Positions 17,250-63,000 of a stretch of 64,000 bases of DNA are shown piece after piece. The position numbers were made by a program, and so were the translations under genes. Under the pieces are notes generated by a model that was given only the letters and a program-made list of their open reading frames with translations, was not told the origin of the DNA and did no database searches. The stretch is taken from sequence record MN106245.1; one strand, written 5' to 3'. The stretch is from Klebsiella phage EI. How positions within the stretch are numbered: position 1 is the stretch's first letter; every line of letters starts with the position of its first letter.

Positions 17250-17310
17250 TCTCTAGATACAAAAAAGGCCCTCCATACGGAGAGCCAAGAATAACCAATA
17301 AGGTTACACA

Positions 17311-17475
17311 CTAGATTAAAAGCTGCACTTCGTTAAGTTGCTGTTCTGTATCCTCAGTAACTGGCATCTCAACTGCATGATTATAGCATTGACCGGGATG
17401 AACCGGACCTTTGTCTGATTGAACAACCAATACATCATCGATTGGAGTCTTACAGACGACACAAATACACGACAT
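17311..17475 (-). CDS. small Cys-rich protein (54 aa, MSCICVVCKTPIDD...PGQCYNH...), uvsY.-2 position
   Basis: Strong RBS GAGGAGACAAC-ATG; CxxC...C..H arrangement suggests a zinc-binding mini-protein; it is below the 60-aa cutoff of the ORF track. Confidence 0.55.
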   Translation of the reverse strand: MSCICVVCKTPIDDVLVVQSDKGPVHPGQCYNHAVEMPVTEDTEQQLNEVQLLI

Positions 17476-17505
17476 GGTTGTCTCCTCTGTTAATAAACTT
17501 ATTTA

Positions 17506-31629: not shown

Positions 31630-31797
31630 TTAACCGATAAAGGTCCAATGAGTTAAATCAATAAGACCTTTAGCTTTCATTTTTTCAATCAGGTCATCAG
31701 CCACTTGACGACCGTTTTTGTAATACGTTACATCTTCTGAGTAACCGTCTTCATCTTCGTAAGTCACGGAAATGATTTTACCAACAACAATGGTTTT
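31630..31797 (-). CDS. possible small ORF (55 aa, TTG start, ...YEDEDGYSEDVTYYKNGRQVADDLIEKMKAKGLIDLTHWTFIG)
   Basis: Coding-like sequence fills an otherwise empty 150-nt gap; weak RBS GAAGAG; non-ATG start. Confidence 0.3.
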   Translation of the reverse strand, partial: KTIVVGKIISVTYEDEDGYSEDVTYYKNGRQVADDLIEKMKAKGLIDLTHWTFIG

Positions 31798-31802
31798 CAA
31801 AA

Positions 31803-31994
31803 CTACTCTTCACCAGTGAAGAAATTAGTCAAACGAATTTTCCATGAGAAATCATCTGAAGGGCCTTCAGGAGTCATACAGTAAACCAGTTCGAATTGCT
31901 CTTTGCTAAGCATCCACTGGGCTTCGTGAACTACTTGGGCTTTATAGCCGTCATGGTCTTTACACTTAACAGTAGCATTCAGATTGATTTTCAT
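31803..31994 (-). CDS. hypothetical protein (63 aa)
   Basis: ORF in the 30.x operon. Confidence 0.45.
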   Translation of the reverse strand: MKINLNATVKCKDHDGYKAQVVHEAQWMLSKEQFELVYCMTPEGPSDDFSWKIRLTNFFTGEE

Positions 31995-32098
31995 TTTATT
32001 CTCCGGTTTGTCGGTGTAAGAGTACTATACCACAACCTAAAGGTGATGTAAACACCGCTACTAAAACAAAAAAGGGACTCCCGTAGGAGTCCCTAAAC

Positions 32099-32281
32099 TT
32101 ATGCCTTCGGCTTACCAAAACGAGAAGCATCATCGCGAAGAACCGCACGAGCCCGACGCATGATTTTCTCAACCGTCTGATTGATACGCTTGTTCGACGC
32201 ACGCTTGTAGCCAGCGCGTTTAGAGGTACCAACAACTTCTTTTACTGCAGTTTTTGCTTTTGCTTTTGCTTGTTTAGCCAT
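32099..32281 (-). CDS. small very basic protein (MAKQAKAKAKTAVKEV...RRARAVLRDDASRFGKPKA)
   Basis: RBS GGAAG before the third Met; Lys/Arg-rich; codons look GC-richer than the neighbouring genes. Confidence 0.45.
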   Translation of the reverse strand: MAKQAKAKAKTAVKEVVGTSKRAGYKRASNKRINQTVEKIMRRARAVLRDDASRFGKPKA

Positions 32282-32311
32282 TATAAAGTCTTCCATTTTG
32301 GAGAAATACAT

Positions 32312-32650
32312 GGGAGCACGTTCTTCCGAGGTTCAACTTCTTTCGACAGTTCTTTCGGTTGTAGCTCCCGCAAGCCCTCAAGGGGCAACGTTTAAACTCT
32401 TATCTGTTGCACACCGTTAGCTTAAAGGTTCCGGGTCCGATTTATCGGGGATAAGATATACACCGATGGATGTATAGGCCTTGAGGCGTACTCCCGATTG
32501 GCCATCGCCTCGGGGTAGCATGCACTTGCCGTTTATTTTCTAGCTGCACTTTGGTAGCAAATCACCGTTGGTTTCGGGTGTTTTACGTGGGGATAACCAA
32601 CAACGTCCACATCATACGTTACCCATGCGTACACATGGTGGGCGTACAAA
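32312..32650. other. 340-bp ORF-free, relatively GC-rich, stem-rich region (candidate structured RNA or cis element)
   Basis: No ORF longer than about 33 codons on either strand in a genome that is otherwise about 95% coding; multiple short inverted repeats (gggagc...gctccc, gccctcaaggggc, gaggcg...cgcctc) and direct repeats (ttctttcg x2, gcgtaca x2). Confidence 0.4.
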
Positions 32651-32899
32651 TTACTTCAGCGTCACCACAAAGTGGCGAACAGCTTTATGAGCCTTAGCAC
32701 ACAGAGGCTTAGCATATTTCAGTTCATCTTTAGCAGCTAGTTCAGCTTCAAGAGCTTTCTGGGCCGGATTTAGATGTTTGAAGTAACCAAGCAGATCAAG
32801 CATTGCTGCTTCGACGTCGATGGAGGCACCGTAGTTCTCGTGGCCATTGTTCCAGGATTGACGCTGGATGTCAAGTACAAATTTGATAGTATCTTTCAT
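32651..32899 (-). CDS. rIII: rIII lysis-inhibition accessory protein
   Basis: 82 aa, the T4 rIII length; ...QSWNNGHENYGASIDVEAAMLDLLG.F..LNPAQKALEAE.AAK.ELKYAKP...KAHKAVRHFVVT.K; adjacent to gene 31. Confidence 0.8.
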   Translation of the reverse strand: MKDTIKFVLDIQRQSWNNGHENYGASIDVEAAMLDLLGYFKHLNPAQKALEAELAAKDELKYAKPLCAKAHKAVRHFVVTLK

Positions 32900-33004
32900 T
32901 ATAGAACCTCAAGTGAGGTGGATAAAAGGTGGAACCTTAAGACTCATTTAGCTTAACGCATCTCCACCACATAGAAGAGTCATCTCTTCATACTTTTATT
33001 TATA

Positions 33005-33334
33005 TCACTTATAAACACACGTCAAATTTTTATAGTGTACAGTGACGAATTTCTGCTTAATATCTTTGGCTTTAGCTATACCAGCAGCAACCAAAGGATG
33101 GGTTACGTGTTTAATACTACCTAAAGGAGTAGGGGTCAGATCACCGACTTCAACGAACCCTTTAGGAACATCTTCACCGATAGAATAGATTTCACATAGT
33201 TCAGGAACTTCGCCTTGAGAGCGGCGTTGTTCAATGATAATACCGCCAGCAGAAACTTCTGGCTCGCCAGCCTGGGCAGGTTCAGACACTAAAATAACAT
33301 ACTCACCAAGAGCACGAATTGGTAAATCAGTCAT
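33005..33334 (-). CDS. 31: gp31 co-chaperonin (GroES-like)
   Basis: 109 aa; ...[23 protein letters not shown]...[13 protein letters not shown]...S.G.DVP.GF.EVGDLT..P.G.I..V.HP.VA.G... is near-identical to T4 gp31. Confidence 0.95.
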
Positions 33335-42399: not shown

Positions 42400-43489
42400 C
42401 GTTATGTTCGATTGAGCTCGCTAATTCTCAACCCGTTCTCTTATGAACTGCTGCATATTACTATGCAGACCAGACTATATCACAATCCCGGAGGGATTCT
42501 CCCCATTTCGAGTCGCTTGACCCTACGTCCGAAGACTAGTCGTTGAACCTTGTTTTGCAATTGTCGCCGTGCCATCGTTTATATGTTGATGGTGATAAAT
42601 CTTTCTTATCACAGTATGGACAATTCAATTGAATTCTATTTGGATTTAATTTACATCTGTCATTATGTTTTAGATAAAACCCAGGACCTTTACCAATGTG
42701 ACCACAAAAATCACATGTGATTTCTTTTTGTGCAGGATGGGTCCAGTTCTTAACCATTTCTAATGTTTTTGCTGATGTTCTTTTCTTATGGTCTTCTGAT
42801 AAGAAATGATGTGAACCGTCATTTACCCGTTTTGATTGGGTTTCTGACTGCATTTTACCACCGCAAAATACATGGGTACCTTCTTTTATAGCTGCAATAT
42901 TACGTTCTTTAACTTTTGCAATATGCTCAGCTTGTTGAAAATTATGTATACCTAATGCAACTCTATTTAAATTAGATTTACGCTGTATTTCACCATCTAA
43001 AAGATGAAATGTACCATTTTCTATCTTAGATTTAATAGAGGCAATATTTTTAGCTCGTACTTCAGGGATATTAAAAATCTGAATTTCTCTAGATTTTGCG
43101 GCTTTAGAAGCTAATTCAGAAATTTCTTCAGGAGAATATTTCATTCTAAGCTTTATAGCATGACAAGCCTGGTAATCTTTTTGAGCTAAATGTATATCAT
43201 AATGTTCCTGTATAGAAAGGCACATCAAATTATCTAAATCATTATTTTCACGGTTACCGTCTTTATGATGGATTTCGTATGTTCTTCCATCAGAATCTTT
43301 AGGTATAGGTCCGTTAGCATCTATCCAAATTTTTCTATAGTTTCAATTGTGCATCCTCTTAAAAGCATAATCATTTTATATTATACTAATTAAAGGTGCA
43401 AGCAAAACCTTGGCTGCTAGTTTTCCATAAAGGACTTTCCAGCAATTAAAGGAGTTTTCGATAAACGTTACCGTTTAAAGGCGCATTTT
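42400..43489 (-). mobile_element. group I intron in nrdB (1090 nt) carrying an HNH endonuclease ORF
   Basis: 5' splice site after the U of ...gcgU; 3' end ...gaacauaacG; the 3' core (aacgacuagucuucggacguagggucaagcgacucgaaa...gauauagucugg) is closely similar to the td intron 3' core in this window. Confidence 0.85.
42536..43374 (-). pseudogene. I-TevIII-like HNH homing endonuclease in the nrdB intron, N-terminally frameshifted
   Basis: HNH motif ...YEIHHKDGNRENNDLDNL... plus C-terminal Cys/His zinc clusters. The ATG at 43374 (MIMLLRGCTIETIEKF) is in a different frame from the HNH-containing frame, which opens after a TGA at 43343-43345 and has no ATG until MCLS at 43225; the frames switch near gaaaaattt. 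Confidence 0.7.
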
Positions 43490-47582: not shown

Positions 47583-47897
47583 CATTATGTTCAGATAAGG
47601 TCGTTAATCTTATCCCGGAATTATATCCAGCTGCATGTCGCCATGCAGAGCAGACTATATCTCCAACTTCTTAAAGCGAAGTTGTCTATCGTTTCGAGTC
47701 ACTTGACCCTACTCCCTAAAGGGATAGTCGTTAGGCATTTATGTAAAACCGATTCCACTTTTCATAAACACCTCTTTAAAATATAGAAGTACTTATTAAA
47801 TGGAGGTCCTACAATTTAGCACGGGATTGTCTACTAGAGAGGTTCCCCGTTTAGATAGATTACAAGTATAAGTCACCTTATACCCAGGCCTAAATTA
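47583..47897 (-). mobile_element. group I intron in td, short (315 nt) and ORF-less
   Basis: 5' end uaauuuaggccuggguauaaggugacuuauacuuguaaucuaucuaaacggggaaccucucuaguagacaaucccgugcuaaauuguagga...; 3' end ...ccuuaucugaacauaauG; much shorter than the 1016-nt intron of T4, with no endonuclease ORF. Confidence 0.9.
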
Positions 47898-48446
47898 ACC
47901 TAAGAACACGTCAACAGAACGTTGATACCACTGTAAGTCGAGGTACCCATTACGAACGTTGAATTGATAAAAACAGTGGCATGGTGGAAGCGCCATCTTA
48001 TCGATTTCAGCCGGGTTCCAAGCAGAAACAATTTGCCGACGATCTGTAGGCATCTGTTTAATACGATTAATGACTAATTTCAACTGGTCAATACCGCCAA
48101 AATCACGCCATTGCTTGCCATAAACAGGGCCTAAAGCACCGTCCATATAACCTAGTTGACGGGCTTGAGTCTCGTAGTTCTCGTCCCAAATAGTTTTGCC
48201 TTCGTCTCGAGAGCCATGAGTACGTTCACGAAGATCGTCAACATTAGTAGAGCCTGACAAGAACCAAAGCAGCTCAGAGATACAAGCTTTCCAGGCCAGT
48301 TTTTTAGTTGTTACTGCCGGGAACCCACGAGTTAAATCAAATCGAATCTTCGTGCCGAAGACGGCGCGTGTTCCAGTTCCGGTACGGTCATCAGTGTCAT
48401 AGCCGTCAGTAAGAATGTGTTTAATTAGATCTTGGTATTGTTTCAT
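47898..48446 (-). CDS. td: thymidylate synthase Td, exon 1
   Basis: MKQYQDLIKHILTDGYDTDDRTGTGT...PPCHCFYQFNVRNGYLDLQWYQRSVDVFLG ends in-frame with a stop exactly at the intron start. Confidence 0.95.
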
Positions 48447-60005: not shown

Positions 60006-63000
60006 ATGGCCGATCAAAACTTAAAACAAATACAATTTAAAAGAACTAGCACAGAGAATAAAGCACCAGGTGCAGATATCGTAGCCCGTGGCGAAATCGC
60101 ATTGAATACCCATGGTCGTACTCTTGCCATTTATACTAAAGATGAAAATGATAAAGTAGTACAGTTAGCTGGTAAAGGTGTTCCATTTTTAGATACCTCC
60201 GGTACCCTTAGTGTTGGTGGAACCACCACATTAAAAGATAACGTTACTATTTCTCCAAATAAAGCAATTAGTTTTGAAACCACTGATTTAAGCGGTGAAA
60301 TAACACGCCATATTGTCGGTAAATGCGCTACTAATGATGGGTGGTATATTGGATCCGGTGGTACAAGCAATAGCGGTATTCTTGAGATCGGTACTATTGA
60401 CGACGGGAATGAAACCATCCAATTCGTACAGCGTGGGGCCGGAAATATAGAAGCCAGAAAATTAGTTTTACTTGATGGCTCTGGTAATACTACTCTTCCA
60501 GGCGATTTAAGATTAACTACTAATAAAGCCGTTAAAATTAGTAATGGAAGTGACCTTGTTCTTGAAATGGGTGTAGGCGCTAATGACGTTTATATTAAAA
60601 ACCAGCGAGGCATAGGGGTTCTTCAACTAACTAATGATAGTAATCTGACGTTTAGAAGTTCCCAGGTTTATTACGCCATGGATGGAAGAGGTCCTGGTAA
60701 ATCCGGTACTCTTCTGACAAACGTAGAAAATGAGCGCCAGCTTAAACAGGATAATTTCCCTATAACTACCGGTTCCGAAACTAGATGGACTAAAGTTGCT
60801 CTTTTAAAAGACCCTGGATCAAGCCAGAGCCGCCTGCAATTAATGGTGACTAATGGCGGTAATTATGGCAGTACTTACAGCTCTATCGACTTTATCGATT
60901 GTAGCGCTAGAAACTTTCCATCTTCGTTAACAAGCAGTAACATTCGTAACCACCTACAGGTCCGTCGTCTCGGTAATCCAGCGCTTGATGACACAAACCA
61001 ATTGCGTTATAGTTTAATTCTTACCTCTGAAGGTTTAGAACTGTGGTTTATGCAACGAGCATTCATCGGTGGTGTTAAAGTTGCACTGTTATCTATTGCT
61101 GGTGGTACTGAATATTATCTACCTAACGGTTACACGTCTTCTTCAACTGCACCAGAAGGTTTAGTTGAGAGTACAGCTATTCGTATCTATGATGAATTTA
61201 ACAAGCCTAACATTGACGGTGGTACTGAGGGTATTCTGCCTATTAGCAGAGGCGGTACCGGCGGCACTTCTTCTGCTGCTGCTCGTAATAACTTAGGTCT
61301 AGGTACTGCTGCTATTCGCGACGTCGGCGAATCCACCGGCAACCTTTTAGAAAACGGTGCTTACGGTTTAGGTGGTAATGGTGGTAAATCCATCAACGAC
61401 ATTATCTCTAATGCGGATATGCTGAATCGTTTAAAAGCATATGGCGGTACTTTCTGGCGTGGTGTTACTAAATCTGGTGTTAGCGTTCAAAATGGCCTTT
61501 ATAGCCACGGCTCCGGTATTTTTATGAATGCTGGTGATACCATGTCAGCTATTAATATCGACTATGCTAGTGCTAAAGTTCGTGTATATGCAGCTAACAA
61601 CAGTGGTCTTGCTGCAGGAAATGTTAACTATAACGAACTTTACGGTACAGCAAATAAACCGTCTAAGGCCGACGTAGGGCTTGGTAATCTGACAAACGAC
61701 ACCCAGGTTAAAAAAGCCGGCGACACCATGACCGGTGATTTGACGGTTCCTAATTTACATGCTTCCGGTACCGGCACCGCATCGGTATATGTTAATGCCG
61801 GGACTGGGAATGCACATGTATGGTTTAGAACCGATGGTAATGAACGCGGTGTAATCTGGGCAACACCTAATACTACGGATTTAGGTCAGATTAATATTCG
61901 TGCAAAAACCACAGCTGGTGTTTCTGCTGGTGATTTTAGCTTCCGTTCTGATGGCCGCCTTGATGTCCCTGTAGCGGTTAAAATTGGCGGTGCCGCAATG
62001 TTAACTAAAGACGGGAACATCACCTCCGGCTCTATGTTTGGTGGTAACCTTAACAACTACTTGACTTCTATTAAAAATGATATCACCGCTGGTGATAGTA
62101 AGCAAGTAAGTAAAACCGGTGACACAATGACCGGCAACTTGACTATTAATGCTAACTTAAAAGTCGAAAACCCTAATGGAACAATGGTTGATTTAGGTTC
62201 AGAGAACTCAGACAAGTACAGCAGACTGACCCTCGCGCGAAAAATTGGTGACGGCTCAGCTGTGGCAATGCTTAAAATTACTCCTGAAGGACACGTACAA
62301 TTTGGGTATCAAACTGCAGTTGCTACTCCAGCTCCTAGCAAGTACATCCTAGTTAAACCCGACGGTCTTGCTGTAGAAGGCGATTTGGTTTTTAATCAGA
62401 CATATCGTGGCGCTGAAGATGCAGTTGATATTTCTGATAAGACTATCGACCTTAATAGTCTGATTATTAGGTTCAGTGATTTAGGTACTCGCCAATTGTA
62501 TAAATGTAGGTCGTCTGGTGGCGGAAGTAATATATCAAACAAACCTACCTCTGATGGCAACTTTGTTCTTGAAGTTCTGTCTTTGCGTAAGGTTTCTGAT
62601 ACCGATTGGTCGTGTAAGCAGACCTTTACCACAAAGAACGATGCCGTTGAAGGTGTATATGTTCGCTACGGACAAAACGGCGGATGGTCTGCCTGGAAAG
62701 AGGTTGTCGCAGGTGTTCAACCGATTAATCTTGGCGGTACTGGAGCAACTTCTGTAGCTTCTGCTCGTAATAACCTTGGCGTTGGCGAAGGTCAAACGGT
62801 GACGTTCGGCGGATTGAAAGTTAACGGTATTGGAACAAATGACCCCTATCTAACATTTAAAAATGGGGCCGCAGTTCGCGAAGCCCAAGGTGGTAGTACC
62901 GGTGCATTACTCATATCAGCTTCTTCTACAGCCGCGGCAGGAGCTAAATATATTGCTTTTAGGCCATTCGGTGATTCGTCCAATTCTGAGATTAGAGTTA

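Follow-up and report, generated by a model that had tools for sequence, protein, structure and literature searches.

The gap between genes rIII and 30.9 of Klebsiella phage EI was analyzed in a window of 64,000 nucleotides (nt), the whole stretch of DNA examined (record MN106245.1), in which it occupies positions 32312-32650 and was read on the minus strand, the strand of both genes. The gap is most likely a transcribed island, a mosaic of independently shuffled structured RNA modules that form part of the minus-strand transcript extending from rIII to the terminator past 30.9. It contains a 143-nt structured RNA (the core, 32393-32535) and, just 5' of it, a single pseudoknot unit resembling the antitoxin RNA ToxI (module B, 32537-32566). 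The favored explanation, with a probability of roughly 0.6, is that the island holds exchangeable structured RNAs, a ToxI homolog and an independent core, that act in trans. T4-like phages belong to the most thoroughly studied viruses and see wide use in phage therapy against Klebsiella and Escherichia coli, and this spacer is annotated as empty or with spurious open reading frames (ORFs).

Structure and conservation of the core RNA

The core is almost certainly a real structured RNA, as judged from covariation. The fold was modeled from 20 distinct versions, which were aligned with MAFFT and folded with RNAalifold, and was then refined by covariation. In the MAFFT alignment, 97% of cells were paired, compared with 29-44% in slid controls, and double changes were found in 27 of the 47 pairs. 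A 24-sequence alignment that adds the divergent copies of phages fHe-Yen9-01 and Citrof4 (114 and 98 bits with covariance model R1) had 98.1% of cells paired, compared with 29-42% in slid controls, and compensatory changes in 35 of the 47 pairs, including previously invariant pairs of P2 and P7. This larger alignment was fitted to the model and therefore leans towards the structure, so that the MAFFT result serves as the independent check. G-U pairs outnumbered A-C pairs by 41 to 2, which identifies the minus strand of the window as the functional strand. The initial annotation of the gap had proposed a structured noncoding RNA and had named covariation in related T4-like phages as a check; the proposal was borne out by the covariation (35 of 47 pairs), the kissing loop described below, and the strand-biased G-U pairs.

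The covariance model and the covariation describe a four-way junction (P1/P2-P3/P4/P5, minus strand) in which P1, P2, P4, and P5 meet without unpaired bases, making the junction a perfect one. P1 closes the core by pairing the 5' strand UAAAC (32531-32535) with GUUUA (32393-32397), and all 5 of its pairs covary, with AU, UA, GC, and CG variants. P2 (32528-32530 with 32477-32479) changes from C-G to U-A in fHe-Yen9-01 and is linked through a conserved internal loop (AAGUGCAU opposite CUCAAG) to P3, a long hairpin arm (32486-32519; GCUACCCCGA...UCGGGAGUACGC) with two bulges and compensatory changes in 8 of its 10 pairs. The apical loop of P3, CGAUGG (32502-32507), forms the 5' half of a kissing-loop pseudoknot, and its 3' half is the loop CCAUCG (32464-32469) of hairpin P4, the stem of which pairs 32470-32476 with 32457-32463. 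Five of the six kissing-loop pairs show double changes, and the variants are CGAUGG/CCAUCG, UGAUGG/CCAUCA, CUAUGG/CCAUAG, CAAUGA/UCAUUG, UUGUAUU/AAUACAA, and UGCAUU/AAUGCA. The P5 domain (32398-32456) is a three-way junction of P5 (UCUUAUC/GAUAAGA), hairpin P6, and P7 (ACCCG/CGGUGU), with compensatory changes in 6/7, 3/4, and 3/5 pairs, respectively, in the 24-sequence alignment. The P6 loop is usually of the GNRA type, or UAAA, and the P7 loop GA(A/C)CC..GCUAA and the 3' junction GCAACA are nearly invariant; the core as a whole has about 30 invariant unpaired bases. A mutual-information scan for further tertiary pairs in the conserved loops returned none beyond the known helices. Model R1 gave a single match in the window (32384-32545, minus strand, 185 bits), and the centroid fold of the single sequence reproduces the core helices. 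Taken as a comparison of phage versions, these data show strong purifying selection for a complex fold.

Searches for relatives of the core

Judging from the searches below, the core belongs to no described RNA family, and its covariation support is on par with that of accepted riboswitch and ribozyme classes, of which it is a member of none. The gathering scan of the whole window against Rfam 15 found only a group I intron (RF00028, 47631-47907, minus strand, 63.8 bits, E = 7e-14), which coincides with a 309-bp ORF-free stretch; Rfam E-value scans of 1.1 kb and of a 171-nt element gave chance-level hits only. A group I intron or intron remnant was rejected for the gap, given that RF00028 matches 47631-47907 only and that both flanking genes, rIII and 30.9, are intact. 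The earlier suggestion of a decayed intron or mobile-gene remnant found no support in the gap, where neither an Rfam signal (intron or other) nor a remnant of an ORF was detected.

Likenesses noticed by eye were discarded. For PK1 of transfer-messenger RNA (tmRNA) and J11/12 of RNase P, local alignments with E. coli ssrA and rnpB fell within shuffled controls (55% and 11% of shuffles, respectively, scored as high or higher). The likeness to segments of 16S rRNA was not collinear, and no match emerged when all E. coli genomes were searched with blastn. In hosts, two pattern scans for the core of one genome from each of 185,579 bacterial and archaeal species gave 0 hits. No match to the core was found in complete E. 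coli genomes at E <= 10 or in 72,556 plasmids at E <= 1, and the whole gap matched plasmids at E <= 10 through module B only. A literature text search found the conserved strings of the core in no paper, keyword searches of the literature for a noncoding RNA of T4-like phages at this locus found nothing, and there is no mention of T4-like phages, Klebsiella, or rIII in the main text of PMC10690425.

A ToxI-like unit beside the core

Module B (32537-32566, minus strand; GGUGAUUUGCUACC-AA-AGUGCAGCUAGAAA) is a single ToxI-like pseudoknot unit (pseudo-ToxI) and, on the basis of the matches described here, is homologous to ToxI antitoxin RNA with near certainty; the initial annotation made no mention of a ToxI mimic. 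ToxI is the 36-nt antitoxin RNA of ToxIN, a type III toxin-antitoxin and abortive infection system, and its published repeat is AGGTGATTTGCTACCTTTAAGTGCAGCTAGAAATTC (PMC8610362). The 14-nt blocks GGTGATTTGCTACC and AGTGCAGCTAGAAA of module B are both identical to this repeat and to the array of a K. pneumoniae plasmid. A search of the 64-kb window with the ToxI pattern gave exactly one match, with 0 expected by chance. The sole difference between the blocks lies in loop 2, which is 2-3 nt shorter than in ToxI; the ToxI loop has been described as length-tolerant (Blower et al., PMC3475682).

Over nine ToxI and phage versions, the two pseudoknot helices (G2G3U4/A13C14C15 and U9G10C11/G23C24A25) had 98% of cells paired and compensatory changes in 3 of 6 pairs. 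The variants are UGC/GCA in the window, CGC/GCG in other T-even phages and in phage PKM.Lu.22.1, and CAC/GUG in T4, as well as GGU/ACC versus AGU/ACU. Module B keeps the U9-A25 pair, which is C-G or A-U in other phages, and a change of U9-A25 to C-G has been described for Pectobacterium phage PhiTE (PMC3475682). The bases that contact ToxN, C27 and U28, are required for its binding (PMC3475682) and are retained (GCAG-CUA-GAAA). An AA^AU motif of the type cleaved by ToxN lies 3' of module B (GAAAAU) and abuts P1 of the core; there is no AAAU 5' of the unit and no toxN beside it. Rfam misses even the bona fide plasmid toxI array, so its silence on module B is uninformative.

A phage-borne ToxI mimic that acts against ToxIN abortive infection is known from PhiTE, the pseudo-ToxI of Blower et al. 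2012 (PMC3475682). Module B shares with ToxI and with this mimic both 14-nt blocks, the two pseudoknot helices, C27 and U28, and the 3' AA^AU site, and resembles the PhiTE locus in being carried by a phage without an adjacent toxN. It differs from ToxI in being a single unit rather than a tandem array, in its shorter loop 2, in the lack of a 5' AAAU, and in being known here from sequence alone, and it differs from the PhiTE locus in being found in T4-like phages, in the rIII-30.9 spacer. A ToxI-like unit in this spacer is not mentioned in the T4 and ToxIN papers examined.

The ToxI repeat was found in 3-15 tandem copies with toxN on 65 plasmids, which are small and mobilizable and come from E. 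coli, Salmonella, Klebsiella, Yersinia, Pectobacterium, and Serratia. On the K. pneumoniae plasmid CP044396, a 5.5-copy toxI array is followed by a terminator and then by a toxin gene of the ToxN/AbiQ family. Among phages, the unit is present in 189 records, mostly of Klebsiella T4-like phages, each of which has a single copy; the others are unrelated phages of about 75-145 kb. Its presence in unrelated phages suggests that pseudo-ToxI is a widely exchanged module. The unrelated carriers include MF979563 (Pectobacterium phage DU_PP_IV), OR426634 (Klebsiella phage pKMKP103), PQ850628 (E. coli phage Bas88), MN478377 (phage Eos), PP989838, and PP889506, and some unrelated carriers have ToxI-like units at two places per genome. 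T4 itself has a diverged ToxI-like unit, GGAGAUUCACUGCCUUAGUGUGAGCUAAAAU, right after the rIII stop codon (about 130758-130779 of the T4 genome, minus strand), with the compensatory CAC/GUG version of helix 2.

Distribution and mobility

A blastn search with the gap matched 413 phage records, and a core segment of about 135 nt (32397-32531) was about 95% identical in E. coli Tequatrovirus-type phages. Core carriers number about 400 of 50,697 records and are phages of Enterobacterales only. Pattern scans of metagenomes and IMG/VR returned near-identical T4-like copies only, plus chance hits that were rejected by the model. The core is 83-95% identical to its counterparts in ACG-C40, PS2, IT22, and PEi26, in which rIII, 30.9, and gp31 are 62-81% identical. 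The spacers of T4, T2, and RB68 are about 95% identical to that of ACG-C40 yet lack exactly the core, which is also missing from RB18 among the RB phages examined; its absence from these four phages may explain why the core was missed. Such natural near-isogenic pairs (ACG-C40 type versus T4 type) provide a genetic handle on the core.

The position of the core varies as well. It lies downstream of module A, a further element of the island (described below), in the window and in Serratia phage PS2, and upstream of module A in ACG-C40 and Erwinia phage IT22; in some other phages it follows the rIII stop codon directly. In Yersinia phage JC221 and Citrobacter phage Citrof4, the core follows uvsY and faces convergent uvsW genes, with no gene downstream. 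In PKM.Lu.22.1, a 76-kb non-T4 phage of the Grimontviridae, its neighbors are early genes, and a sigma-like gene lies downstream of it. The genes beside the core in these three phages share nothing with its T4-like neighbors. Each genome has one copy, which is always co-oriented with its neighbors. Module B lies 13-16 nt from the core, upstream of it in the window type and in fHe-Yen9-01 and downstream in PKM.Lu.22.1 and JC221. In ACG-C40, about 109 nt separate the two, and PS2, IT22, and Citrof4 have no module B.

These comparisons show apparent movement of the core and of module B between phages, independently of the flanking genes. The earlier suggestion of a horizontally acquired module agrees with the presence or absence of the core between close relatives (ACG-C40 versus T4), with its shifting positions and additional loci, and with its occurrence in a phage of the Grimontviridae. 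The companion idea of an RNA-protein pair with the basic ORF at 32099-32281 (gene 30.9) finds no support: 30.9 is a conserved core gene that is present in T4, where the core RNA is missing, and in three of its contexts the core RNA is not accompanied by any 30.9.

The core resembles T4 rnaC and rnaD (species 1 and 2) and phage tRNA genes in that these are small RNA genes in co-oriented units, accessory, exchangeable, and better conserved than their flanks. It is none of them: the core model, run with filters off on the T4 tRNA/rnaC/rnaD region, reached 5.7 bits at best, which is no hit, and ARAGORN found no tRNA or tmRNA in the window. The promoter-early stem-loop (PeSL) elements of Arbiol, Comeau, and Krisch (2010) are said to be mobile intergenic cassettes, each a promoter with a simple stem-loop, that are shuffled between T4-type genomes. 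The island likewise consists of short shuffled intergenic modules, but pseudoknots and a 143-nt RNA of several helices take the place of the simple stem-loop, and no promoter is evident.

Alternative explanations for the core

The main rival is that the core is a cis-acting riboswitch or leader that senses a metabolite or protein and controls the downstream gene (30.9) through a following hairpin or terminator. Purine and lysine riboswitches are aptamers organized by loop-loop contacts. The core shares with them the closing stem P1, a junction of several helices, many invariant unpaired bases, and a kissing loop that joins neighboring arms and covaries, so that a conserved aptamer fold with covariation is present and the RNA has the look of an aptamer (closing stem, tertiary contacts, about 30 invariant unpaired bases). 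It is always co-oriented and is located upstream of 30.9 in almost all T4-like phages, and the order in PKM.Lu.22.1 (core, module B, strong terminator, 25 nt, gene) would also suit a leader. The core differs from these riboswitches in having no Rfam match, a junction without unpaired bases, and no consistent downstream gene or expression platform. What follows it is 30.9, the sigma-like gene, or no gene, and the intervening modules vary. The two downstream genes are unrelated, and in Citrof4 and JC221 no co-oriented gene follows at all, the next genes being convergent. The distance from the core to 30.9 ranges from about 60 to 190 nt, with module A and hairpins H and C variably in between. Hairpin H (described below), which might serve as the switch, has no U-tract and is present regardless of the core, and T4 expresses 30.9 without the core. 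A riboswitch or leader is thus a distinctly unlikely explanation, and the core is probably a module in its own right and not a leader of 30.9.

An RNA-processing or stability element, either a self-cleaving ribozyme or a nuclease-resistant fold at the ends of the rIII and 30.9 messenger RNAs (mRNAs), would suit the location of the core between two cistrons of one transcription unit, its compact pseudoknotted fold, and the small hairpins and pseudoknots next to it, which are typical of mRNA end structures. It is improbable, because the core matches no ribozyme family in Rfam, simple hairpins do such work elsewhere in the gap, and T4 manages without the core; a stabilizer would have no need of about 30 invariant unpaired bases, nor any need to turn up at other loci and in unrelated phages.

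A selfish mobile or DNA-level element without RNA function (a miniature inverted-repeat transposable element-like insertion, a recombination site, or an origin) is already disfavored and very improbable. The boundaries of presence and absence do coincide with a terminal inverted repeat, namely P1, and the insertion positions do vary. The sequence of P1, however, varies while staying complementary, which is the reverse of a terminal repeat recognized by a protein, the internal helices and the kissing loop covary, and there is one copy per genome. The 41 G-U versus 2 A-C pairs show that just one strand is selected to pair, and this selection on a single RNA strand equally speaks against the cis-acting DNA element for replication or packaging that had been listed in the initial annotation.

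A missed or decayed protein-coding gene is a negligible possibility: some depositors called ORFs of 35-64 aa (CPT_Marfa_223/224, ACG-C40_0208a), but each frame of the core is interrupted by stop codons in all 24 members, the lengths of indels are not divisible by three, the order of modules differs between phages, and substitutions track base pairing rather than codon positions. The central 162 nt has 2-3 stop codons in each of the six frames in the window and at least one per frame in 23 relatives too. With all six frames stopped in every member, no single-base correction can open a frame, which disposes of the conserved ORF that the initial annotation had considered as a way to refute an RNA.

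Possible function

By analogy with the pseudo-ToxI of PhiTE, module B might serve as a decoy antitoxin that binds the endoribonuclease ToxN and so would blunt abortive infection; the toxIN plasmids that encode ToxN are common in Klebsiella and E. coli. Whether module B is functional against ToxN is put slightly below even odds. As described in PMC9391042 and PMC10853763, TifA is a small RNA-binding protein of T4-like phages that traps ToxN on cellular RNA. Module B would share with TifA the presumed target ToxN, the phage group, and an accessory counter-defense function, and differs from it in being an RNA mimic of the antitoxin at another locus. Hundreds of Klebsiella T4-like phages carry the ToxI unit next to rIII, and the toxIN defense is found on plasmids of the same hosts; RNA-based immune evasion thus looks common and not a laboratory curiosity of one Pectobacterium phage.

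The core would be a self-contained, aptamer-like RNA, probably acting after release from the mRNA, and not a leader controlling 30.9. Its partner may be one specific host or defense protein or small molecule that is conserved across Enterobacterales, since Enterobacterales are the host range of all carriers. Because the core is repeatedly found 13-16 nt from a ToxI mimic, is patchy, and is horizontally exchanged, counter-defense is the leading guess for its role, although a tentative and rather unlikely one. A bolder version is unlikely: that the core represents a new class of counter-defense RNA, a traded aptamer that neutralizes a component of bacterial immunity, and that the spacer is an "RNA anti-defense island." The core would then sequester, for example, a defense nuclease, a sensor, or an immune signaling nucleotide, and the spacer would collect the ToxI mimic and the core, perhaps along with the pseudoknot-like module A. 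If the core is a counter-defense aptamer, it would be a new category of phage weaponry.

Several points weigh against a set of trans-acting counter-defense RNAs. The expression and processing of the island are predicted from sequence alone, and the counter-defense role of the core is suggested by association and distribution. The core lies upstream of 30.9 in nearly all T4-like phages, as a cis-regulator would. Its fold is thermodynamically unexceptional (folding-energy z = -1.8 for the core and -1.1 for the whole gap), so that the case for an RNA rests on the comparative evidence. The core has no detectable homolog in bacteria, plasmids, or E. coli genomes and is therefore, unlike module B, not a simple sequence mimic of a host RNA. 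For module B, the tandem repeats with AA^AU on both sides that mark ToxI are replaced by a single copy in 64 kb with the 3' site only. In PhiTE, neither a single aligned pseudo-ToxI repeat nor the whole wild-type 1.5-repeat locus neutralized ToxN, and repeat expansion was needed (PMC3475682). T4, which carries the diverged ToxI unit, is blocked by toxIN (PMC9391042).

Other modules and the surrounding locus

Module A (32567-32617, minus strand; GUAUGAUGUGGACG..GGUUAUC..CACGUAAAAC..GAAACC) is an element of about 50 nt that was recognized from its hairpin and from alignments with relatives. It is also present in T4 and lies on either side of the core, phage by phage. Two of the five stem pairs show compensatory changes, and module A, which has homologs in T4, IT22, and fHe-Yen9-01, has an A-rich tail (GUAAAAC or GUUAAAUA). 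In several phages, the loop is complementary to the downstream AACC tail (GUUGG/CCAAC, AGUAG/CUACU, GUGAG/CUCAC). This pseudoknot pairing is suggestive in 4 phages and nonsignificant per sequence, and module A may be a second small pseudoknot.

A short hairpin, CCAUG..CAUGG, was read from the sequence directly after the rIII stop codon (32618-32650, minus strand). It holds the gcgtaca repeat and is common to Erwinia phage IT22, where it has another position. Hairpin H (32374-32386, minus strand; GCCCCUUGAGGGC then UU) is a GC-rich stem-loop that is conserved in T4-like phages, including T4; it has no proper U-tract and was not called by the terminator scan. Hairpin C (32312-32369, minus strand; GGGAGC...GCUCCC) has a conserved stem base, with an interior that is replaced in other phages. 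Hairpins H and C form part of the leader of 30.9 and are present whether or not the core is. Of the inverted repeats first noticed in the gap, gggagc (32312-32317)/gctccc (32364-32369) and gccctcaaggggc (32374-32386) are real hairpins that are present in relatives, whereas gaggcg/cgcctc exists as a repeat but its pairing is not supported by covariation, its bases belonging to helix P3, the kissing loop, and a junction.

The region 32050-32950 is 98% identical to phage Marfa and 95-98% identical to many Klebsiella T4-like phages. The order of genes on the minus strand is gp31 (33005-33334), rIII (32651-32899), the gap, 30.9 (32099-32281), and an intrinsic terminator. rIII, the upstream neighbor of the island, was identified by phrog_1457 at 8e-40 and by annotations in relatives. 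The terminator (32073-32094, minus strand) has a 9-bp stem followed by a U-tract, ends the rIII-30.9 transcription unit, and corresponds to a terminator annotation in Marfa. Gene 30.9, which lies outside the RNA island, encodes 60 aa with an isoelectric point (pI) of 11.6 and 19 lysine plus arginine residues, matches phrog_1427 at 7e-31, and is annotated in relatives. The ORF at 32099-32281 had been described as very basic, which it is, and as having GC-rich codons, which it does not, given a third-position GC of only 0.36. Nor is it an acquired gene; it is the conserved T4 gene 30.9, with about 80% identity to T4 gp30.9. The predicted gp30.9 is a conserved, very basic core protein without a specific association with the core RNA.

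The description of the gap as free of ORFs and rich in G and C stood. Neither strand has an ORF of at least 60 aa over 32312-32650, and the longest internal ORFs, with TTG and GTG starts allowed, are 38-41 codons, slightly above the approximately 33 first stated. The GC content is 0.499 against a window mean of 0.41 (standard deviation 0.035, 339-bp windows), a value equaled in 1% of windows. Leaving aside the group I intron (47631-47907), no genuine noncoding stretch of the window is longer than the 339-bp gap. Two longer "ORF-free" stretches (one of 1,977 bp at 60419-62395) are an artifact of a distal tail-fiber gene that runs past the window end. Hypothetical proteins of 35-64 aa are annotated across the island in MN044033 (CPT_Marfa_223 and 224) and JN986846 (ACG-C40_0208a) and are considered spurious on account of the stop codons and the covariation. 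Two more stretches of the window, 43229-43487 and 17250-17505 (about 256-259 bp), have no ORF of at least 60 aa. The homolog of gene 30.8 is split in the window (31630-31994, minus strand): the ORF at 31803-31994 corresponds to positions 3-63 of Pfam Phage_30_8 and the ORF at 31630-31800, in another frame, to positions 68-123. Marfa has one intact gene of 122 aa, and the split is a frameshift, a pseudogene, or a sequencing error.

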